64,000 bases of DNA. Origin: Octopus sinensis (taxonomy: Eukaryota). The stretch is taken from positions 28,272,001 to 28,336,000 of the forward strand of contig NC_043004.1 in assembly GCF_006345805.1 (NCBI RefSeq), in the 5' to 3' direction. Every line of letters starts with the position of its first letter. Position 1 is the first letter of the stretch. Positions 5,263 to 59,309 of this stretch are shown here, in pieces. Position numbers and translations under genes: made by a program. The notes under the pieces are model-generated. The model worked only from the letters and a program-made list of their open reading frames with translations, was not told the DNA's origin and did no database searches.

Positions 5263-5605
5263 GAGGATTTAAGATCTGCTCTCAGGAGGTCAAACAAATG
5301 GAAGTCTCCAGGAAAGGATAAAATTCGTAACTTCTGGTTGACCTCCTTCCCAGAGAGCCATGAACTACTAACAAAACTTTACAACGATACTTTGCAACAT
5401 ACAAGTATGATCCCCTCTTGGCTAGTTAATGGTTTAACATTCCTCATTTCAAAAAATGCAGAAACAAATGAACCAAAAAATGATCGACTCATAACCTGCT
5501 TAACAACAATGTATAAAATGCTAACATCTATCCTGACTGAATATACTTATAATATTTTTAATAGAAAGTAGAATATTCCCTAATGAGCAAAAAGGATGTA
5601 AACGT
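5263..5605 (+). mobile_element. R4/Dong-like (RLE clade) non-LTR retrotransposon, decayed N-terminal RT fragment
   Basis: translation EDLRSALRRSNKWKSPGKDKIRNFWL...WLVNGLTFLISK...RLITCLTTMYKMLTSIL, then IFPNEQKGCKR after a frameshift; resembles RT domains 0-2 (KSPGxD, RPITCL, EQKG). Confidence 0.85.
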
Positions 5606-5615
5606 GAATCTTATG

Positions 5616-5893
5616 CAGTTCTATATTTAAGAGATGAGGAATTACGTACATTATTTACATTATTTACATTCGACGGATATTTGTCCTCATCTTGTTTGTT
5701 GTTAACACAATGTTTCGGCTGATATACCCTCCAGGTGTCTTGGGGAAGTTCCGAACCTGGGTTCTTATTCCTAAGGTATTTTTGTTGCTGTTATTATTAT
5801 TATTATTATTATTCAGGTCAGTGCGTTGAATCGAACTCGGAATCTTGGGGTTAGTAGCCCGCGCTCTTAACCACTACGCCATATGCGTGGGCA
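5616..5893 (-). mobile_element. tRNA-like/(AAT)n/hammerhead non-coding element, single copy with hammerhead core deleted
   Basis: colinear with both arms of the 26700-27464 palindrome; A box TGGCGTAGTGG, B box GAGTTCGATTC; shared 3' end catctcttaaatatagaactg. Confidence 0.8.
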
Positions 5894-6074
5894 ATTATGG
5901 AGTGAATTTTAGGGCTTATAAATCTAATATTCTCCTATCCTTCCTTAATACCGGTTCCCATATGCTGCTCATATCTACACTCGGTCTGCTTAGGAGGTTG
6001 TTGTTTTTTGTCTTGCAGTGTAGATGGAAAATACACAGGAGTATTCAATCATTAGTCACGTCATAGACGAAACT

Positions 6075-6430
6075 TAGATAATAATTTTCTTTAAATGTGC
6101 GCAGTACTTAGCAAGACTGCTTTATGCATGATACCGGTTTTCCGTAGTATTCCCAACCACATTACGAAATCTTGAAGTTTCAGTGGCTTCTACCCTAATG
6201 CCTTAATCACAACTGGTATCACAGGAATTCAAAATAGTCTTAACATTTTCACTCTCAATTCGGAGTACTTGGTGATATTTTCAACCTCTTTATTCGCAGC
6301 ATACATGTCATTTGGCATGGCTACGTCAATGACCTGACAGTACTTGTCTTTCTTGTTCAATACGACCATATCCGGTGGGCGATGCTCAATTACTCTATCA
6401 GTCGGAAAATCATAATCCGAGAAATTTCGA
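6075..6430 (-). mobile_element. R4/Dong-like LINE C-terminal restriction-like endonuclease fragment
   Basis: DFPTDRVIEHRPPDMVV...CQVIDVAMPND...KEVENITKYSEL, then VIPVVIKALG and KAVLLSTAHI, matching the RLE PD..D motif and C-terminus. Confidence 0.85.
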
Positions 6431-23082: not shown

Positions 23083-23421
23083 TGACTGTGCTGAACTTTA
23101 TCTCTCTTATTATTTCATTTCTTTCTCTCTTTTTTTTTTTTTGCCTTTTGTATTTCTGTATTTCACCTTCGTAAAGCTTCTTGGTCCATCGATATTTGTG
23201 TGAGAAAATGGCGCTTAATGGCTTTAGTCATTGCTGCTGTATAAGAAGACAGCGGTCGCGACAAAGATGCAGTAATAACGATGTTCTAGACTTGAGTATC
23301 TTCTACCGTTTACTTCTTTTTTTCTTTCGAAAATCAGAAACAAATTCTTTGTATATAATTAATATGCGTAATCGGACGTTAATACTTTTTTGTGTGTAAT
23401 TTTGCTTCCAATATAACTACC

Positions 23422-23765
23422 TTTTATCTTTTATCTTTTACTTGTTTCAGTCATTTGACTGCGGCCATGCTGGGGCACCACCTTCAGGAGTTTTAGTCCG
23501 TACAAGTTGGCCTCGGGGCTAATATTTTAAAGCCTAGTATTTATTCTATTGGTCTTTTTGTCGAACCGTTAAGTTATGGGGGATGTAAACACACCAACAC
23601 CGGTTGTCAAATATACACACACACATACATATATATATATATAAATAAATATATATATATATATGACAGGCTTCTTTCAGTTTCCGTCTACCAAATCCAC
23701 TCACAAGGCTTCAGTCAGCCCGAGGCTACAGTAGAAGACACCTACGCAGTGGGACTGAACCTGGA
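23422..23765 (-). mobile_element. SINE family A (tRNA-derived, CORE-like), internally deleted
   Basis: cttgtttcagtcatttgactgcggccatgctgg...ctttcagtttccgtctaccaaatccactcacaagg matches 31852-32252 in reverse. Confidence 0.85.
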
Positions 23766-24737
23766 AACTAACATTTTGCCTTCTATAAAGGGACAGTTCT
23801 ATCTATGTAGAATAGTTGTGTTATCAACTGATATCCTTTAATGCCTAGATGATTTTTTTACTGCTAGTGTTGTATAATGTAATGATGGTGTAGTTGCGGT
23901 TGTTTGAAGGAAAATTTGAGTTAACGGTCAAACATTTCAAAGCCAAACTTTACAATAACAACATTGATGCACCACAGCATTATTCGCAAAAATTCCTATT
24001 AATTACAAAGCTTGGACAAACAACATCTCTAAGACCGGAATAAAATAAGACCGGAAATTCTGGAATAGTTGATACGTACAGTAACTTAACTATTCCAAAC
24101 AAAATATGAAGTATAAGAAGGAACGTATGAAATATCTTTATTAAAAGAGATAAGAAGAGATAAGTTCATTCACTAATGAAACACATATACACTCAAACAC
24201 AGAAACACACATGCACTCACACACTCTCTCTCCCCCCTCTCTCTCTCTCTATATATATATATATCTGCCATTACATACATACACACATTGACAGGCATGC
24301 ACGTATCTACATACGCACGAACTCAGAAGCAAGCAGTACACTCAGTATACTGAGAACGGTTCGTGCGTGTAGCAGACACAAGAACAAGGAAGCTATTGAG
24401 AGAGGGGAAAGAAAAAGACAACTAGAGACAGGAAGTGACTGATTGAGACAGAGAGAGACAGACAGACAGACAGATACAGAGACAGAGAGCGGATGAGGAA
24501 ATAGAGTGAAGAGAGAGAGAAGATAGAGAAGAAGAGAGAGAGAGAGAGAGAGAGAAGCGATCAAGAAATAAGGTACAAAAATAGGGACAAAGAGGCTGGA
24601 GGGTGAGTGAAATGGGGCGAACAGCGTTTTTATGTTGGATTTCAAACTGAAATAACAGAGGGAAATAAACAGGATGGGAGGAGAGGAAATGTTTTGTCGC
24701 TTTTATTATATTGTCTCGTTATTTCATTCTCTCGCGT

Positions 24738-26420: not shown

Positions 26421-26756
26421 CAGACTTTCAGTGTTATTCTGTATACATTTGTAATGCCATCTCCAAATTTTATGCTTTTTGTCTTTATTGACACACGATG
26501 GGCTTCATCCAGAAAATTGCGAATCTTCTCAATCAGCTCCGATATTGTGACATTTTTCTCTTACTTCCTCTCTACTGTCCTTGAACCTCTCGTGCCAGCG
26601 AAAAAGTTAATCCATTTACAGTCTGGAACATTTTATAACCTTCTCTAGCGTGTTGTACCCACTTTATTACGAAACTTTATTGCATAACGAGTTTCCAGAT
26701 ACATTATTTACATTATTTACAAGTGACGGGTATTTGCCCTCATCTTGTTTGTTGTT

Positions 26757-26802
26757 AACACAACGTTTCGGCTGATATACTCTCCAGCCTTCATTAGGTG
26801 TC
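26757..26802 (-). ncRNA. minimal type I hammerhead ribozyme motif (core CUAAUGA, G5>A)
   Basis: GACAC-CUAAUGA-A-GGCUG(loop)CAGCC-GAAA-CG-UU-GUGUU: stem I, stem II and palindromic AACGUU stem III region. Confidence 0.65.
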
Positions 26803-26890
26803 TTGGGCAAATTTCGAACCTGGGTTCTCATTCCTAAGGTATTTTTCGATGTTGTTGTTGTTGTTGTTATTGTTATTGTTGTTGTTGGTG

Positions 26891-26982
<92 letters not shown>

Positions 26983-27095
26983 TTTATTTTTATAATTATT
27001 ATTATTATTATTATTATTCAGATCACTGCCTGGAATCGAACTCGGAATCTTGGGGTTAGTAGGCCGCATTCTTAACCATTACGCACTATGCCCTC

Positions 27096-27169
27096 GGGCA
27101 TATTGCGTAGTGCTTAGGAGCGCGGGCTACTAACCCAAAATTCCGTTTTCGACTCCAGGCAGTGACCTG
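27096..27169 (+). other. tRNA-derived segment (Pol III A/B boxes, ACT anticodon-like loop); not a functional tRNA
   Basis: gcgtagtgcttaggagcgcggg-ctactaa-ccc...ttcgactccaggc; poor acceptor stem. Confidence 0.65.
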
Positions 27170-27249
<80 letters not shown>

Positions 27250-27330
27250 TGACAATAACAATAACAACAACAGCAATAACAACATGAAAAATGCCTTAGT
27301 AATGAGAACCCATGTTCGAAATTTCCCCAA

Positions 27331-27376
27331 GACACCTAATGAATGCTGGAGAGTATATCAGCCGAAACGTTGTGTT
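27331..27376 (+). ncRNA. minimal type I hammerhead ribozyme motif (core CUAAUGA)
   Basis: gacac-ctaatga-a-tgctg gagagtatat cagcc-gaaa-cg-tt-gtgtt. Confidence 0.6.
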
Positions 27377-28781
27377 AACAACAAACAAGATGGGGACAAA
27401 TATCCGTCAATAGTAAATAATGTAAATATTGTACATATTTGTTCATCTCTTAAATATAGAACTGGAGTTTCCAGATGTGTATGTTTGTATGTATGTATGT
27501 ATGTATGTATGTATGTATGTGTGTATATATGTATGTTTGTGCGTATGTATGTATTAAATTCCGTGCATCCATACGTCCTCTGCTTTGTTCTTCCCGACTG
27601 TTGAAGTGTCAGAGAGCTCAGAGAACACAACCACAGCTATGTCTGAAATTAAGAATTTCACATGTTGGAATTTCACATGTTGGAATTTGTGTTGCATTGT
27701 AATTTCACTTTTTATTGCTTATTCAGTTTCTTTGCGATAGAAAAAGAATATTGAAAGAAATTGTTTTTTTTTCTTTCTCATTTATTAAATATAAATAAAA
27801 TAGCGAGTTTTGTTTTAATATTAAATTTAATTTTGTTTCTTCTACAATATTTACGCCCTTAGCGTTTTTAGACGTGATTGCGTATCATCGGAACAAACCA
27901 ATTAGGGGCACCTTAATTACATTACGTTTGGCAAAAACTGAAAAAGGAGAAAACCGAAAATTGATAGACATGGAAATATCTGACGTAAAGATATTTTCAT
28001 AACAATTAAGTGGGCCTTAGCTTATGTAATTTCAATACACACACACACACACAAAACCTCATTTATTTTATGACTTAGTGTACTTTAGAACACTATGCAT
28101 GAAGAGAATAAAGGATCCAGTACTGTCTGTATCAGTGTCAAATTACTATTCATTACTAATAGCGACTCTTTACTTGGTAGTTATGACAATACTGGTTTCC
28201 CACAGAGATTCTTGAATGGAGCCAATGTCTGCATGTCGAATAATTGCGTAGTCTCTTACAAGATTACTGAATGACTAAAGCCATACTGTCCAGTTTTCTA
28301 TTAAATAATTTCGCTGTCGATACATAGCAGATATCTTGGCGTTAAGTGTACAGTGCGTAGCCTTGGCGTTACTGTACATCGGATATTTTACAGTTTTCTC
28401 TTTGCTATCTAAGATTGTCATAAGACTGCCAACTTTCTTAATTCGACAATTTTTTACGAGAATTGAAATTGAGAAACATTTACCTTGCAATTATTTATCT
28501 TGCAATTACTCTCTTGATCTCTGATTACATTTAGGCAGCACTTCGATCAATAAGTATTAACTTTTTCGAGAAAAAAATGTCTGATGTAACGCGAGTTTAT
28601 TGCTTATACTGTCACCGTTTGAATAAGCTGTTAAAGATGAGGCTTGGACTCCCAGTCTAATCAAAAGTATCAATAAATTTCATTCTAATTATTGTATAAA
28701 TGTGCTACTTTTCAGCAAGTTAATAAGCAATACAGAATAATACACACACACGGACGCACACACACAGATATATATACATAC

Positions 28782-31368: not shown

Positions 31369-31538
31369 GCTCAGGAGTGGGTGTGTGGTAAGTAGCTTGC
31401 TTACCAGCCACATGGTTCCGGATTCAGTACCACTGCGTGGCACCTTGGGCAAGTGTCTTCTACTATAGGTGCTCGGGCCGACCAAAGCCTTGTGAATTTA
31501 TTTCATAGACGGAGACGGAGAGAAACCTGTCGTATATA

Positions 31539-31581
<43 letters not shown>

Positions 31582-31810
31582 GAGAGAGAGTTTGTGTGTC
31601 TGTGATTGTCTCCCACCATCGTTTGACATCTGATGGTGGCGTGTCTACGTCCCCGTAACATAGCGGTTCGTCAAAGGAGATCGATAGAATAAGTACTAGG
31701 CTTACAAAGAATAACTCCTGGGTGGGTGGGTGGGGGAAATTTGTTCGACTAAAGGCGTTGCTCTAGTATGAGCGCAGTCAAATGACTGAATCAAATAAAA
31801 GAATAAAAGA
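31369..31810 (+). mobile_element. SINE family A (tRNA-derived, CORE-like)
   Basis: caggagtgggtgtgtggtaagtagc...ggattcagtaccactgcgtggcaccttgggcaagtg...aatgactgaa; internal microsatellite. Confidence 0.9.
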
Positions 31811-31851
31811 AAATATACTTGTAACCTCTTTATAAAAGTAATAGGCATGCA

Positions 31852-32252
31852 GGAGTGGATGTGTGGTAAGTAGCTTGCTAACCAACCGCATGGTTCCGGG
31901 TTCAGTCCCACTGCGTGGCATCTTGGGCGAGTGTCTTCTACTATAGCCCCGGGCCGACCAATGCCTTGTGAGTGGATTTGGTAGACAGAAACTGAAAGAA
32001 GCCTGTCGTATATATGTATATATATATGTATGTGTGTGTGTTTGTATGTCTGTGTTTGTTCCCCTAGCATTGCTTGACAACCGATGCTGGTGTGTTTACG
32101 TCCCCGTCACTTAGCGGTTCGACAAAAAGAGACCGATAGAATAAGTACTGGGCTTACAAAAAGAATAAGTTCCGGGGTCGAGTTGCTCGACTAAAGGCGG
32201 TGCTCCAGCATGGCCGCAGTCAAATGACTGAAACAAGTAAAAAAAAAAGAGT
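31852..32252 (+). mobile_element. SINE family A, young copy flanked by a 72 bp direct duplication
   Basis: full family A sequence; 31780-31851 equals 32253-32324 with one mismatch. Confidence 0.9.
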
Positions 32253-33098
32253 AAATGACTGAATCAAATAAAAGAATAAAAGAAAATATACTTGTAACCT
32301 CTTTATAAAAGTAATAGACATGCAAGTATGTACCGGAAACGTGTAATGTGAAACTCTTAGTGAGGGCTAGTGAAGATTTTAGCCTGTTTTAAATAGGATA
32401 TTACTCTCCGAACTGTACCGAATACTCCCTGTTTACTGAATTCTTTTTCACTAGAACATGCATGAACTCACGCAATCATGCAATCATGCAATCACGCACA
32501 CACGCATACATACACAAGAACAGAAACATATCACCATCGAAAGGTTATCTATCAAACGTTTATTATCATAAATCAGCGGCCTTCAAATACACATGAAGTA
32601 TCGTTAATACGACGACCTGTTGGTTATTGTTTTCTTAAACATTCCATCCCAATGTGATTATTATAAGCATCTTCTCCACTGTATGTGCTTATTCGTGTGT
32701 CACTACGTCTCTCAATCGCTCCTGCTCTCTTCATGCATTAAAGATCGATTGGCCAACATATCCACCAATCACATGCCAGTGGTTTGTTTGTTTGTTTATT
32801 TATTTATTTATTTCACTTGAGTTCATTTTATTTTCTTTGTTCTTCCCACTGCCAGTTTCTGCTCCTAATGCTACTCACTGATTGATACATAATTACTTTC
32901 TAATATTCTTTTCATTTATGTATCTATTTATATGTATTCATGTTGTTGTTTTTGTTTTTTTCGTTGTTTGTTCAAATTGTGGTGGTGGTGGTGGATTGTA
33001 CCCGTCCCACCTCTATACCCTCGTGGCTCAGCAGCAGATTCATTTTCCTTCTAAATTTTCCAGATTATCATCATTATCAACATCATCATCTTCACCAC

Positions 33099-34028: not shown

Positions 34029-34199
34029 TTCACTATACATATATAGTTATACACTATAGTTATATTTACATATATATATATATGTATGTATGCATGTATG
34101 TATGTATGTATGTATGTATGTATGTATGTATGTATGTATGTATGTATGTATGTATGTATGTATATATGTATGTATATATGCATGTATGTATATGTATAT

Positions 34200-34355
34200 T
34201 ACTCTTTACTCTTTTACTCTTTTACTTGTTTCAGTCATTTGACTGCGGCCATGCTGGAGCACCGCCTTTAGTCGAGCAAATCGACCCCGGGACTTATTCT
34301 TTGTAAGCCCAGTACTTATTCATCGGTCTCTTTTGCCGAACCGCTAAGTAACGGA
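34200..34355 (-). mobile_element. SINE family A 3' fragment
   Basis: near-identical to the reverse complement of the 3' half of 31852-32252. Confidence 0.9.
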
Positions 34356-42747: not shown

Positions 42748-42901
42748 GATCAATAAATGGTGGGGTTGTGTTGACCGCACGTGGAGAAATGATAAGTAAG
42801 GAAATTTTTTTTTTTTTTTTTTTTTTTTTTAAATGCAGAATGCTCAAATGAAAGAAAATTTTAATAAAATGAGAAATTGATAAAATATATAAATATATAT
42901 T

Positions 42902-42942
42902 TATTCAACCGGTTTTCGTCATTGTATGACTTGTCAAGAATA
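42902..42942 (-). ncRNA. hammerhead-like motif in the inverted pLTR (U3-A8 variant)
   Basis: reverse complement of 45294-45334. Confidence 0.55.
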
Positions 42943-43776
42943 TTTATGTTTTAAGAAGTTTTTTTTTAAATTAGAAAGGGGAAAAAAAGAAAATTGCATT
43001 GTTTTTTGTAAAAGAATAATGATAAAAATGTACAAAAATTAAAAAATAAGTTCTCCGATACATTGTGAGTTCGTTGTGTATCTTGAGTTTTATGGTTGTT
43101 TACGAAAAAATTACCTTGAGGTGTTAAGATCCAAAGGGATTAAGAGCATGTGTTGTGTTGTGTTGTTAAATTCAGCATGTTTGCAGGACAGGAAGTAGTA
43201 GTAATTGTGGTCCTGGTTCTTCAGTTCCTGTGTTGTGAGTAAGGGGAGACAACTCTTTTGAGTTCTTCAATAAAACCCAAATTATAAAACTATCATTTTA
43301 GCTTCATTTGCATTATCTTTTTTATATAATTGCTTGTTAACTTAACTTTCAGATTTTAACACTTTATTTATATTATTTTCTAATAATATAAATCTGCATA
43401 GACAATTGCATTTCAAATTGTCATATCATTTATAATAAAAATGATAGTAATAACAACAATAGTAAAAATGATATTTAAAGAATATAAGTTTTAGCTTGAA
43501 GTGATGAATGCATGGTATCTTTATATATTTTTGTTAGTCCATCCATGAAGAGTGAGGTAGAGAAAGGAAGTTTGATCAACGAGGAGTTTGCATATTAAGT
43601 TGTGTTTGGAATTTTTCAATAAAGAGAATCTCCTTGTTAATTCTCTCCTGTGTGGTGATCCCGTCTTTACATTGGTAGAAGGGGAATATATAGAATTTGG
43701 GGTTTAAGTCTTTAGCACATGAGTCTAAGTGGTCACTCAGTGGAATTTGTCGGTATTCCGGGAGATTTATTTGTTC

Positions 43777-44661
43777 AAACCTACAGACTCACAACAATAC
43801 CTCCTCTTTAATTCATGCCACCCAAAACACACCAAAACAAATATCCCTTTCAATTTAGCTAAAAGGGTATGCACCATTGTCTCGGATCCAAAAACACGAG
43901 AAATACGCCTTCAAGACCTCAAAAAAACACTATTACAACGTCAATATCCCTCCACCCTTATAGAGTATGGAATAAAACGCGCCAAAGAACTAGACAACAC
44001 TACACTGAAAACCACCCAACCTAACACCACACACAACCTCAAAATACTTCCATACATTTCCACCCACAACCCCAAAAATATCGAAGCATACACCACAATC
44101 AAACAAAACCTCAGTCTACTGTCAACAGACCCAAAAATGAAAAACATTATAAATACACACAAAATCCTCAAATGCAAAAGGCAACACAAATCTTTAAAAA
44201 AACTCTTGACAAATGCCAAACTTCACACACCACATCCACCCCCAACAGTAAAAAAATGTGCACGCTCAAACTGTGGTACCTGCCCCTTTCTACTTGAAGG
44301 CTCTGAATTTACCTTCAAACAAGGTACGAAGTTTAAAATCAAGACTAACTTCTCCTGTTCCTCCGAGAACCTTATCTACGTTCTCACATGCGCTGGTTGC
44401 CAACATAATTATGTTGGACAAACGAGTCTCCCGTTACGTAAACGAGTAACGGTGCATAAAGAACAAATAAATCTCCCGGAATACCGACAAATTCCACTGA
44501 GTGACCACTTAGACTCATGTGCTAAAGACTTAAACCCCAAATTCTATATATTCCCCTTCTACCAATGTAAAGACGGGATCACCACACAGGAGAGAATTAA
44601 CAAGGAGATTCTCTTTATTGAAAAATTCCAAACACAACTTAATATGCAAACTCCTCATTGA
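43777..44661 (+). CDS. Penelope-like polyprotein C-terminal part: RT thumb/linker, Cys-rich linker and GIY-YIG endonuclease (5'-truncated, frame uninterrupted)
   Basis: KPTDSQQYLLFNSCHPKH (PLE RT end), CARSNCGTC linker, NLIYVLTCAGCQHNYVGQTSLPLRKRVTVH (GIY-YIG), C-terminal E...I...LN; the first 16 codons of track ORF 43729 come from the inverted pLTR. Confidence 0.9.
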   Translation, partial: KPTDSQQYLLFNSCHPKHTKTNIPFNLAKRVCTIVSDPKTREIRLQDLKKTLLQRQYPSTLIEYGIKRAKELDNTTLKTTQPNTTHNLKILPYISTHNPKNIEAYTTIKQNLSLLSTDPKMKNIINTHKILKCKRQHKSLKKLLTNAKLHTPHPPPTVKKCARSNCGTCPFLLEGSEFTFKQGTKFKIKTNFSCSSENLIYVLTCAGCQHNYVGQTSLPLRKRVTVHKEQINLPEYRQIPLSDHLDSCAKDLNPKFYIFPFYQCKDGITTQERINKEILFIEKFQTQLNMQTPH

Positions 44662-45293
44662 TCAAACTTCCTTTCTCTACCTCACTCTTCATGGATGGAC
44701 TAACACAAATATATAAAGATACCATGCATTCATCACTTCAAGCTAAAACTTATATTCTTTAAATATCATTTTTACTATTGTTGTTATTACTATCATTTTT
44801 ATTATAAATGATATGACAATTTGAAATGCAATTGTCTATGCAGATTTATATTATTAGAAAATAATATAAATAAAGTGTTAAAATCTGAAAGTTAAGTTAA
44901 CAAGCAATTATATAAAAAGATAATGCAAATGAAGCTAAAATGATAGTTTTATAATTTGGGTTTTATTGAAGAACTCAAAAGAGTTGTCTCCCCTTACTCA
45001 CAACACAGGAACTGAAGAACCAGGACCACAATTACTACTACTTCCTGTCCTGCAAACATGCTGAATTTAACAACACAACACAACACATGCTCTTAATCCC
45101 TTTGGATCTTAACACCTCAAGGTAATTTTTTCGTAAACAACCATAAAACTCAAGATACACAACGAACTCACAATGTATCGGAGAACTTATTTTTTAATTT
45201 TTGTACATTTTTATCATTATTCTTTTACAAAAAACAATGCAATTTTCTTTTTTTCCCCTTTCTAATTTAAAAAAAAACTTCTTAAAACATAAA

Positions 45294-45334
45294 TATTCTT
45301 GACAAGTCATACAATGACGAAAACCGGTTGAATA
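45294..45334 (+). ncRNA. hammerhead-like motif in the Penelope pLTR (U3-A8 variant)
   Basis: TATTC-TTGACAA-GTCAT aca ATGAC-GAAAA-CCGG-TT-GAATA: 5 bp stem I, 5 bp stem II, palindromic AACCGGTT; one extra A in the GAAA box. Confidence 0.6.
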
Positions 45335-45498
45335 AATATATATTTATATATTTTATCAATTTCTCATTTTATTAAAATTTTCTTTCATTTGAGCATTCTG
45401 CATTTAAAAAATAAAAAAAAAAAAAAAATTTCCTTACTTATATATATATATATACTTTATTAAAAGCAGCAGAAATATAACAAAAGCTGTTATATATA

Positions 45499-49919: not shown

Positions 49920-51575
49920 TAATCTAGGAATCAGGATCAGTCCCACAGGAGTTTCAAGTCGCTTCTATTGTCCATCTTTATAAGAACAAAGGCAACAAAA
50001 TGTGAACGTGACAACCATAGATGTATCTCCCTTTTGTGTATTGTTGGAATGATCCTTGGAAGGGTTATCTCAAACAGACTAAATCATACCCTTGCCAGTT
50101 TAGTGTTGCTTGAATCTCAGTGTGGATCTCGAGCTGGTAGAGGCACAGTGGATATGATATTTAGCCCAAGGCAGCCGCAGGAAAAAGCTCTTGAGCACAA
50201 TCGAGACCTTTTTTGTCACTTTTGTAGATCTAACAAAAACCTTGCAACGCCGTATCTAGGGTTGCCTTTTGGCTTGTCCTTAGGAAGGTAGGTCTTTTCG
50301 AAAAGATGCTCAAAGTCATCATTTCTTTCCATCAAGGGATGATGGTTTTTGTCAGATCAAGCGAGGAAATGTCCATTTCATTTACAGTCTCAACTGGGAC
50401 AAAACAAAGCTGTGTTCCTGCATCGCTTTTATTTGCTCTGTATTTTTCTTTCATGTTGGAAACAACGTTCGAGGGTGTCAACAACGGAGTAAAGTTTGAT
50501 TATAGAACTGGTGATAGCTTGTTCAACCAACAGAACTTCGAAGCAAAAACTAAGACTTTGGTACAAACAGTTCGAGATTTGCTCTTCGCAGACGATTGTG
50601 CACTTGTAGCACACACTCATGAGGAGATTCAATGGATTCTAAACAACTTCTCGCATACATCGAAGGCTTTTGTTCTGATATCAGCATCAAGGAAACAGAT
50701 TGTCCATCAACCCATTCGTGACCATCTTCCCGCTGTTGCTTCTTCTGTATATATTGATGGTGAAAGCATTAAAAACATGTTTCTTTCTTTACTTATCTTG
50801 GTTTCATTGTGTCAAGTGTTGCTAAGATGGATAAAGAAATTAAGTCCAGAATCAGGAACATTAGCTCTGCTTTCGGTAAGCTTTATCACAGGCTTTGGAA
50901 CAGTCCCGAAGGTGATGCATACAAGTCGGTGGTCTTGACATCATTGCTTTATGGTGCTCTGAATTCCGGATTCTGTACCGAAAGCATACCTACAAGCTTA
51001 ATGCTTTACATGTGCGATGCTTCCGTACCATCTCCAACATAAAAACCGAGTGACCATATTCATAACAGTGAGGCACTAACAAAAGACAACATATCAGGCA
51101 TTGAAGCCATTCTCATCAAAATGTAGCTTAGATGGTCAGGTCATCTCTCAGAAGCAACTCCTCTTTGGCCAACCCCCAGCAGGAAGATCAGTTGGGAGGC
51201 TACTCTTAGGCTTCTAAGACAAACTAAAAGACAATCTGAAGCGATGCAACATTCCCTTTTCTTCCTGGGAAAACAAGGCATCAAAATGCAGGATCTGGCA
51301 CAAGTCCTGCTTCTCCTCAGTTCAAAGATTTGAGCTAAGTCCTACATCAGGACCAACTCTATGCAAGCATGAAGGCACGCTGGCAAAACGCTACCCTAAA
51401 TGGAAACCTTACCTGTACGAAGCAAAGCATGCCTTGCCGTCCACTCAATAAAACATAGTGAATGATCCACAAGCACTCAAGCAAACTGAGTACTCAACAT
51501 GTTCCATTTGCTAAAAGGTCTGGAAGACACCAGCAGGTCTCAAGAGAAACATTCGTGTCCATAAAACATGATTAA
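49920..51575 (+). mobile_element. RTE/BovB-like LINE, 5'-truncated and frameshifted RT to 3' end
   Basis: NHRCISLL, ESQCGSRAGRGTVDMIF, GTKQSCVPASLLF, DLLFADDCAL, LRWSGHL; degenerate C2H2 finger at 51500-51562. Confidence 0.92.
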
Positions 51576-56387: not shown

Positions 56388-56738
56388 GTTAGCTTGCTTC
56401 CCAACCACATGTTCCCGGGTTCAGTCCCACTGCATGGCATCTTGGCAACTGTCCTCTACTATAGCCTTGGGCCGACCAAAGCCTTGAGAGTGGATTTGGT
56501 TGAAGGAAACTGAAAGAAGCTCGTTGTATATATATGTCTGTGTGTGTTTGTACCCCCAACATCGCTTGGCAACCGATGCTGGTATGTTTACGCCCCCGTA
56601 ACTTAGTAGTTCGGTGAAAGAGAGCGATAGAATAAGTACTAGGCTTACAAAGAATAAGTCCTGGGGTCGATTTGCTCGACTAAAGGCGGTGCTCCAGCAT
56701 AGCCTCAGCCAAATGATTGAAACAAGTAAAAGAATAAA
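56388..56738 (+). mobile_element. SINE family A
   Basis: agcttgcttcccaaccacatgttcccgggttcagtcccactg...gaaacaagtaaaagaataaa. Confidence 0.9.
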
Positions 56739-58248
56739 ATTTAGATAAATTTTAAAACATGGTAATGATGTTGTTTAGTCGAAGATCATTGATAATCTAC
56801 CGGACATCTGGTTAAAAGCTTTCCGTGAGTCCAGTCGTTTTGTAAATAGAGAAGCAGAACCGTTCAATGTTTCATATATATTTTACATAAATGTGGAACA
56901 ATCCCACCACACCCTTTGGACATCCGAAATTATTTAAAGCTAGTGTGGGGCAACGACCTAGATCAAATGCTTATAACAGTGGAGTCTGCTAAAGGGACAC
57001 GAGGATCAAGTGGTGGTATTAAATCAGATGAGTGACCAAATTTAGTTTAAGACAAAAGAATGAGATTTAAATGAGATTTGGATATTATTTCTATCAGTTC
57101 GAGCAACATTAGCTGGATATAGTTGTGATGATGACTATGATGATAATCTCTCATAGTCCGGTTCTGCAATTTCTTGCTGAACAGCCTGCACAAATTATTT
57201 GTTTATAATGATCAAACCGACGTTGCCTGAAGAGGTGCTCGGTGTACCAAAACATCAGGTGTCGAAGTGATCGCGGAGCGACGTGAAATGAAGTGCTTTG
57301 CTCAGGAACACAACTCACCACCCGGTCCAGTCGGCCATGCGCCGTCGATGATGACTATTACATAATGCTTAGTAAACCATGTACATTTAACGATCGCAAT
57401 GATGAGTTAGTGTTCCAAAGAAATCAAGGTCTACTTATATAAATTCAGTGTGCAACTGGTGCCTTGTATACTGATGTATTTCTGAATATACGTGTGCAAG
57501 TACTATTTGCATATATATATTATTTTTTCATTTGTTTCAGCCCTAAGGTCATATATATATATATATATATATAGGTTTATTATATGCATTTTACACACAC
57601 ATACAATTCCACGCACACACATTTCCACACGCACGCGCGCACATATACATTATATATTTCTCAAGTGTTTAACAGATGCTCATTCCTCGGCTTGAAAATA
57701 ATTTTTTTTTTTCGTATAGCCAACAAATAGCTTGTTTCAGTAAACTTTCGATCAAAGATTTTCGAGCTGAGACCATCCGGTTGTACATTGGGCATTCTTG
57801 CAACTGTAGTATGTTCTAAAGAGATATTTAGTTGTTATTTCTTACAAGTCGTGTGACAGCGTAGAGCGATGCTTTTTTGGGGATTTTTTTCTAAATATCA
57901 CTCCTTTTATTTTACTAACATTTTCGGCACCTCTTCATACCTACCAACATACTCTCTTAATTTAATGTATGTAATCTAGTCCTGAGTTAATCCTCCCTTC
58001 TATTAGTGAATGCTGTAAACCTAGGTTGTATATATTCACTTTTGTTTGTTTACTAATTCACATTTTGAAGTGTATTATTATTGTCGATGTGGTTGTGATG
58101 AAGATAACAAGCAGTTTATCATCGAGACAAAAACTGCACTAATGCATCCATCACCCCTCCTAACAGCACCCATATAAAATTTTCTGGAATCCATTTTGAG
58201 ACGCAGTAATTTAGAGTCTTTCCTTGGCCTCTATACCTCTGATGCACT

Positions 58249-58655
58249 CTCTCTCTTTTACTCCTTTACTTGTTTCAGTCATTTGACTGTGGCCATGCTG
58301 GAGCACCGCCTTTAGTCGAGCAAATCGACCCCGGGTCTTATTCTTTTGTAAGCCCAGTACTTATTCTATCGGTCTCTTTTGCCGAACCGCTAAGTAACGG
58401 GGACATAAACACACCAGCATCGGTTGTCAAGCAATGCTAGGGGGACAAACACAGACAAACAAACACACACACGTATACATATATATATATATATATATAT
58501 ACAACAGGCTTCTTTCAGTTTCCGTCTACCAAATCCACTCACAAGGCATTGGTCGGTCCGGGGCTATATCAGAAGACACTTGCCCAAGATGCCACGCAGT
58601 GGGACTGAACCCAGAACCATATGGTTGGTTAGCAAGCTACTTACCACACAGCCAC
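58249..58655 (-). mobile_element. SINE family A flanked by a ~166 bp direct duplication
   Basis: family A reverse complement; 58055-58248 matches 58656-58821. Confidence 0.9.
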
Positions 58656-59309
58656 AATTCACATTTTGAAGTGTATTATTATTGTCGATGTTGTTGTAAT
58701 GAAGATAACAAGCAGTTTGTCATCGAGACAAAAACTGCACACCCATTTACAATTTTCTGGAATCCATTTTGAGACGTAGTAATTTAGAGTCTTTCCTTGG
58801 CCTCTATACCTCTGATGCACTATATCCCTCTGCTAAGTTGCTGACAAATACGTCTTTTCATCGAATATTGAGTATAAACCAATATGTGATTATTTTTTGA
58901 GACGGTTTCAGTTTCAGAGGTGGTACCTAATTTTGTCGCTTGTTGACTGGCAACATAACAATATGGTGCAAGGGAATCCTATAAACTGTAAGGATGGTAA
59001 CGACTTCAATGAATACGTCGTTTTTTTTAATGAAGAGTATCTCTGCAAAGTGCACACTCAAGGGAGGCCTTGAACTTTGCTGTTCATCCCTTTGGTATCA
59101 ATAAAATACTTATCTATAATAATCGACTAGAATATCACCCCCACCACCACCACCTCCACGGTTACGAATGATAGCGTTGTGATTAGGCAACAGTAATCAA
59201 TATTTCTTCTGGGAATTATATCGATTAGGAAATTATTAGACGTAAATTTAACAATACCCAAGAGAAATTCCAATCCAATTTCTGCCCATGTTTGTGTGTT
59301 CATACATTC

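Follow-up and report, generated by a model that had tools for sequence, protein, structure and literature searches.

The window analysed here is a 64,000-nucleotide stretch of the Octopus sinensis genome, and at 26700-27464 it holds an inverted repeat whose arms read outward from a common centre. Each arm opens with a tRNA-like head in which boxes A and B can be recognised, continues with an (AAT/AAC)n spacer and then shows the layout of a minimal type I hammerhead. The arms are 93% complementary between 26700-26847 and 27286-27433 and 85% complementary between 26896-27054 and 27134-27292, and BLAST aligns them at 91% identity over 268 nt (E 5e-105). An earlier sequence-only reading of the window had described both the inverted repeat and this arm anatomy, and both are borne out, as is its observation that the right arm runs beyond the left one, by ~31 nt, to a defined 3' end at 27464. 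The whole is a single insertion, composed of two head-to-head copies of the pseudo-LTR (pLTR) of an octopus Penelope/Poseidon-type retrotransposon and bounded by a 12-bp target site duplication (TSD; 26689-26700 and 27465-27476). Its parts, and two other features of the window, are the following:

26689..26700, plus strand: left copy of the TSD (12 bp); the same 12-mer is found at 27465-27476
26701..27093, minus strand: left arm, an inverted pLTR copy without tail, with the head +1 at 27093, the AAT run, the ORF start and the hammerhead; it stops at the inner 3' end site
26757..26802, minus strand: minimal type I hammerhead of the left arm, with intact stems I and II and a G5A change in the core, likely inactive
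27087..27102, no strand: palindromic head-to-head junction, corresponding to the 5' end of the element, with 7-bp arms and a 2-nt centre
27096..27169, plus strand: tRNA-Arg(ACG)-like head of the right arm, with box A at 27103-27113 and box B at ~27147-27155
27170..27283, plus strand: pLTR spacer of (AAT/AAC)n, variable in length
27302..27464, plus strand: first ~54 codons of the Penelope ORF, with the ATG at 27302; in full-length copies the frame continues into the polyprotein
27331..27376, plus strand: minimal type I hammerhead of the right arm, with the core at 27336-27342 (G5A), GAAA at 27364-27367 and the predicted cut after 27371
27434..27464, plus strand: PLE 'tail' of ~31 nt, present in the right arm only
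27465..27476, plus strand: right copy of the TSD
5614..6004, minus strand: third copy, a 5'-truncated Penelope-like element (PLE)
42792..45441: second, unrelated PLE, with a weak GIY-YIG match and a Cys-rich linker suggesting the Neptune type

Box B of the right arm is mutated (~27147-27155), giving a run of four Ts (T4) at 27146-27149. The two arms share 3 of 14 variants, G5A among these, and we infer that this pair may be a true fold-back.

The third copy exists and has the same end, as had been reported, but the limits assigned to it (5616-5893) were too short, the true ones including the end of the ORF. It comprises the last ~30 codons (stop codon at 5916-5918), the head, a short AAT run, a partly deleted hammerhead and the tail, and extends upstream past the head for 117 nt, into the final codons of the ORF. 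It appears to have been inserted into one of the decayed LINE-like RT fragments that can be read from the translation at 5300-6200 and 49923-50935; a Pfam search of 50234-50935 was negative.

The sequence-only reading had pointed to an autonomous-type PLE in the same window. The PLE at 42792-45441 belongs to another family, and we rejected it as mobiliser of the palindromic unit in view of its lack of DNA similarity to the unit, its Cys-rich linker and its much younger copies. It is 5'-truncated and contains a ~970-bp near-perfect inverted repeat. Its best 40 matches, itself included, show ~99% identity, and the 39 others share a single breakpoint, so that the truncated, RT-less inverted unit of this PLE appears to have been multiplying recently in this fixed form, as a non-autonomous element. 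The window also bears a dispersed repeat family of ~400-480 bp (31372-32324, 58055-58829, 23411-23768, 34196-34354 and 56390-56739), the first of these being a head-to-tail pair.

The coding Penelope-like element

The sequence-only reading had asked whether the tail might match the pLTR of an element with an RT and an endonuclease, and a search of the 2.72-Gb assembly found this match in a full-length Penelope/Poseidon-type element of the same genome. At a locus picked by its tail (L026), an endonuclease-like C-terminus lies upstream, and among 30 loci retrieved by a DNA search the head stands directly behind the endonuclease C-terminus in 24 of 29, L026's own being left out. Longer copies contain a PLE-type RT and, upstream, the same tail continuing straight into the ORF, and in one natural copy (L109) the frame stays open over 391 aa, starting at the ATG equivalent to window position 27302 and crossing hammerhead and tail; head, (AAT)n, hammerhead and tail are therefore the pLTR of a ~2.6-kb element. 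The ORF stop is followed, after ~30 nt, by the tRNA-like head, then by (AAT)n, the ATG, the hammerhead, the tail and the remaining ORF. Both the hammerhead and the 'defined 3' end' lie within the first ~54 codons of the ORF, the latter at ORF nucleotide 163. Full-length copies were found at L091, L228, L243 and L257, and a tandem copy at L229. Since the entire unit, head included, is the pLTR of an autonomous-type element, the proposal of a chimera between a SINE head and a PLE tail, or of a new class, is abandoned. The tail is not derived from a LINE either, the 3' end being the start of the PLE ORF.

This element is shown to be a member of the PLEs. As in EN+ PLEs, a single ORF carries an RT together with, at its C-terminus, an endonuclease of the GIY-YIG type, the pLTRs lie in tandem or partial tandem and overlap the ORF start, and an inverted 5'-truncated copy is joined to a 30-40-nt tail at one end. 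The RT domain is recognised by Pfam (RVT_1, E 3e-10), and at L231 the natural frame is open for 551 aa, spanning RT and endonuclease. Pfam returned no GIY-YIG match on the endonuclease, which was recognised by its motif and by 24-62% BLAST identity to the C-termini of homologues. The protein homologues carry PLE-type domain sets, the nearest named one being from Octopus sinensis (84%), and further relatives having 60-72% identity. Neptune and Nematis, as described in PMC8557442, have a further Zn-finger linker that separates RT from endonuclease, and L049, L052 and L231 lack it; this linker trait points to Penelope/Poseidon as the probable clade, with Hydra as a less probable one.

The family is abundant: a first look gave 3006 candidates for the tail, and one 26-mer of the head has 1358 exact matches. 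At ~90% agreement per site, the latter figure suggests, as a rough estimate, ~2 x 10^4 heads in the genome. Its copies radiate from near-identical masters. They show a mean identity of 92% to the majority sequence (maximum 97%), and all the full-length copies that were read are broken, so that the family is probably no longer active. A scan of metagenomes returned 9 relatives (30-55% identity), with no convincing tRNA-like head after the ORF, though their distance and fragmentary state leave them uninformative on this point. Within the family, the (AAT)n spacer is often broken by other repeats (L285, L301, L303, L060, L288, L308, L309 and L324), one of these repeats three or four times, which suggests that AAT-targeting elements nest in these pLTRs.

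The tRNA-derived head, the hammerhead and the ends of the copies

The start of the pLTR is shown to be tRNA-derived. The head aligns without gaps to the host tRNA-Arg(ACG) at 46 of 67 positions (score 71), while the best of 27 other host tRNA sequences scores 60 and shuffles compared with these 27 do not exceed 44; the comparison set covered a few isotypes, and tRNA-Arg(ACG) was located by a directed pattern. Boxes A and B of the head majority fit the consensus, and the T stem is broken, leaving no tRNA fold. ARAGORN found nothing relevant in the window, with no tRNA at the insertion, nor in L114, and Rfam found neither hammerhead nor tRNA in these two sequences; the labels tRNA and hammerhead therefore rest on the alignment with the host tRNA gene and on the family majority. 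The tRNA origin of the head and its nearly constant association with the tail agree with the sequence-only reading. Like a SINE2 element, the unit has a tRNA-related head with both boxes at a defined 5' end. It does not form an independent lineage distinct from its partner outside the 3' tail, being collinear with the partner's pLTR, and it ends neither in a LINE-derived tail nor in a simple repeat but in the start of the PLE ORF. On contig C2 (~3.12-3.16 Mb, L155-L158) a tandem array was noticed in which ~90 units of the tRNA-Arg(ACG) type recur every ~206 bp, and the units checked are tRNA-Arg by ARAGORN.

For the 5' ends we used the first 60 loci (63 arms) on contig C1 among the 1358 exact matches to the internal 26-mer, a sample not chosen for 5' ends. 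Relative to tRNA +1, 52 of the 63 arms begin within -14..+13, with peaks at -7 and +1 (exactly +1 in 12 of the 52), and the other 11 are scattered from -44 to beyond -500, running into the ORF. Of the arms that end at -8..-1 or at +1, many have no mirrored partner. An inverted partner is present in 40 of the 63 arms; the copies examined are single or head-to-head, which answers the question of copy orientation raised with the original observation, and short tandem arrays of the head-to-tail kind typical of retrozymes were seen in none of them. Hammerhead-region sequence was scored within 520 nt in 46 of the 63 arms. The 17 scored without it mostly stop in (AAT)n, often at another inserted repeat, and have no common second body. 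Seven distinct copies reach the ORF start: two begin at -13 (L228) and -1 (L257), four are truncated within the pLTR or the ORF start, and one is tandem.

Duplicated loci were removed before pairs, 3' ends, flanks and cores were counted. The tail is found on exactly one arm in 43 of 46 inverted pairs, on neither arm in 3 and on both in 0. Two clusters ~35 nt apart account for 141 of 162 3' ends. The flanks match over 9-13 bp in 21 of 41 pairs, among them the window locus and a few lying in simple repeats; of mismatched controls, 7 of 1636 do so. TSDs, whose possible absence had been raised, are thus present at the window insertion and in the family. One-arm tails, two 3' end clusters, TSDs and inverted pairs support the earlier proposal of Penelope mobilisation, and the head-to-head arms, the ~31-nt one-arm tail and the 12-bp TSD are standard Penelope traits, matching the PLE structure published in PMC3846280 and PMC8557442 as far as described there. 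The two 3' end clusters likewise agree with the pair of internal positions at which RT starts in the anole element PAc (PMC11167929).

PLE minimal hammerheads have been characterised by an extra base after A9, G10.1-C11.1 and a palindromic 15.2-16.2 (PMC4209133), and the family shows these traits of a minimal type I hammerhead. As had been foreseen, the majority core is CUGAUGA, present in 65 of 123 arms; CUGAAGA (15) and CUAAUGA (11) follow, and both core halves are intact in 43 of the 123. The hammerheads of the insertion, correctly recognised by their layout, do not carry this core: both arms have CUAAUGA (G5A), the right arm is also changed at G10.1, and the third copy lacks most of the core. 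The hammerhead of L002 folds into stems I and II, and MFE z-scores are unremarkable, as expected. Arm 5' ends number 8 in the 10 nt after the predicted cut and 19 in the surrounding 78 nt, a weak, post-hoc hint of a footprint of hammerhead cleavage.

The short hairpin at the junction is found in the autonomous pLTR too, at -7..+5. Between the arms of one insertion, 37 of 531 variant sites are shared, against 2.8% between loci, and the polymorphic core position N7 differs in 9 of 36 scored pairs. Many inverted pairs therefore likely come from two templates, which would fit priming on both strands by a dimer as predicted for PAc, the PLE of Anolis carolinensis.

The sense strand of the 2369-nt majority sequence contains 0 TTTT against 4.9 expected when third bases are redrawn (P ~0.002), and the same null applied to 15 other RT ORFs of the assembly gives 116 T4 observed against 106 expected. 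Under stricter nulls, P is 0.075 (codon shuffle) and 0.11 (first-order Markov). The unrelated PLE of the window has 0 T4 in 883 coding nt against 2.4 expected (P 0.05), and 14 in its 3' region. Other Poseidon-type families of the same genome were sought as a control for T4, and none was among the 30 loci returned by an outside Poseidon-type query, all of which belong to the tRNA-headed family.

Transcription and mobilisation, and relation to known elements

In view of its kept boxes, the 5' ends clustered at it and the lack of T4 on the sense strand, the tRNA-Arg-derived head probably acts, as the sequence-only reading had supposed, as an internal Pol III promoter that sets the 5' end of the element. 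This role is likely for the short copies and doubtful for full-length RNA. In a bolder and less likely reading, an autonomous, protein-coding element captured a tRNA-Arg-derived promoter in its pLTR and purged Pol III terminators from its ~2.6-kb unit; Pol III would then supply the templates of both full-length and SINE-like copies, the coding element acting as its own SINE, and schistosome-type repeats could be orphaned equivalents. The head itself probably goes back to a tRNA or a SINE that inserted into the pLTR of an ancestor.

Pol III would start a few nucleotides upstream of tRNA +1 in the upstream pLTR of a master copy. The element protein would bind near the ORF start and nick both target strands ~12 nt apart, and reverse transcription would begin internally at two sites, ~ORF nt 119-133 and 161-170; an internal start at two sites has been reported in vitro for PAc (PMC11167929). 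Used in the upstream pLTR, these sites would yield SINE-like copies of 250-400 nt, and used in the downstream pLTR, long, 5'-truncated ones. At the 5' hairpin, which is self-complementary, the 3' ends of the cDNA would come together and produce the palindrome, either through fold-back or because two cDNAs anneal. Hammerhead cleavage is probably unnecessary. The promoter of Drosophila Penelope, the one PLE promoter described as dissected, is LINE-like, TATA-less and internal (PMC2377424).

The clustering of 5' ends could also reflect hairpin priming, since the pLTRs of rotifer PLEs have a defined, palindromic 5' end, and no tRNA is reported in their description (PMC3846280). The same PLE pLTR may accordingly be mobilised with a head that is no promoter, Pol II or read-through RNA being cut at the tRNA-like +1 in the manner of RNase P, or the RT stalling and folding back at the -7..+5 hairpin. 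We consider this unlikely, although one 5' peak sits exactly at +1, many junctions are built on the hairpin, inverted-junction palindromes of PLEs have been read as self-priming (PMC3846280), and the tandem copy L229 required RNA starting further upstream. Both promoter boxes have been kept while the T stem and cloverleaf are degraded and ARAGORN is negative, the arms that end near +1 without a mirrored partner are many, and T4 avoidance would need a separate cause.

The model of the sequence-only reading makes the short unit a Pol III SINE lineage in its own right, which propagates itself with borrowed PLE machinery; we hold this to be improbable. Short copies with their own boxes A and B do prevail (52 of 63), and their (AAT)n is longer (median ~50 nt against 22 nt in ORF-linked pLTRs). 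No separate short-copy lineage was found, however: nothing fixed and diagnostic sets 58 ORF-linked arms apart from 57 short ones, with tail identities to the majority of 0.943 and 0.942, and spacer length and CpG decay, the sole differences between arms, are explicable by the selection of hits. Moreover, the head belongs to the autonomous element, and, if PAc is taken as a guide, part of the cis signal may be missing from short copies ending at ~+163, since PAc is reported to need ORF RNA to +172, past its start sites (PMC11167929). Very improbable, and already largely refuted, is a chance nesting of an unrelated tRNA SINE in one PLE copy or in (AAT)n. The (AAT)n runs of the family do attract other repeats, but the head lies at a fixed distance from the stop codon throughout the family, in both pLTRs of full-length copies, and coincides with the 5' end of the element, and the arms without hammerhead region reveal no second body sequence.

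Apart from its tRNA-derived start, which is the unusual part, the anatomy is that of known PLEs, and there is no new class. As described for PAc (PMC11167929) and Adineta Pen2a (PMC3846280), the element has a single ORF with RT and C-terminal endonuclease, a pLTR overlapping the ORF start, a minimal pLTR hammerhead, an inverted 5'-truncated copy, a 30-40-nt one-arm tail, two 3' end sites, an 8-13-bp TSD, a palindromic junction and solo pLTRs. Unlike these two as described, the octopus pLTR opens with a tRNA-derived box A/box B segment and (AAT)n, and most copies begin there. The succession of a Pol III promoter and a hammerhead in a short, SINE-like repeat was already known from schistosome SM-alpha and Sj-alpha (PMC6765202); these are tandem and, in that description, without a named autonomous partner, whereas the octopus unit belongs, as pLTR, to a coding element of its own, and its copies are dispersed, single or head-to-head.

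Non-autonomous hammerhead elements derived from PLE pLTRs have likewise been described (bioRxiv 10.64898/2026.07.22.740005). The family resembles metazoan non-LTR retrozymes, whose short type I hammerhead units have ties to PLE pLTRs and are presumed to be mobilised by PLEs (PMC7761336; bioRxiv 10.64898/2026.07.22.740005), for which these accounts describe head-to-tail tandem arrays, circular RNAs and no evident promoters. In contrast, the octopus family shows inverted pairs with TSD and tail, and a tRNA-like head. A small-RNA-derived Pol III promoter inside a terminal repeat is reported for the TRIMp3 elements Helenus, Ajax and Cassandra (PMC10886601); these are non-autonomous and of the LTR type, and their autonomous partners are argued there to use Pol II, whereas the octopus tRNA-like sequence sits in the repeat of a coding element, a PLE.

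A literature search, mostly of open papers, returned no description of a tRNA-derived pLTR or of the octopus family, which is probably present in repeat libraries as Penelope or as an unclassified SINE. Ohshima and Okada (1994) reportedly described the octopus tRNA SINEs OR1, OR2 and OK, of tRNA-Arg origin; compared here by name, these are said to be tRNA-derived and possibly to share the same parent tRNA. OR2 is listed as a CORE SINE (PMC4758252). A tRNA-derived promoter in a PLE's own terminal repeat would be a route to SINE-like repeats without a separate SINE lineage, and part of the octopus SINE fraction, reported to be large and mostly unclassified (PMC13282606), could be PLE pLTRs. The family also offers a large set of natural products on which the model of internal initiation at two sites in PLE transposition can be tested. 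Should Pol III read through the ORF, the family would depart from the view that coding retroelements need Pol II, and the question would arise of how the RNA is translated.

Among the RT matches in the assembly, the best RVT_1 matches, as well as many of the top tRNA genes, lie on unplaced contigs (L184-L213) with near-identical intact LINE-like ORFs; these contigs may represent a young family or the DNA of another organism.
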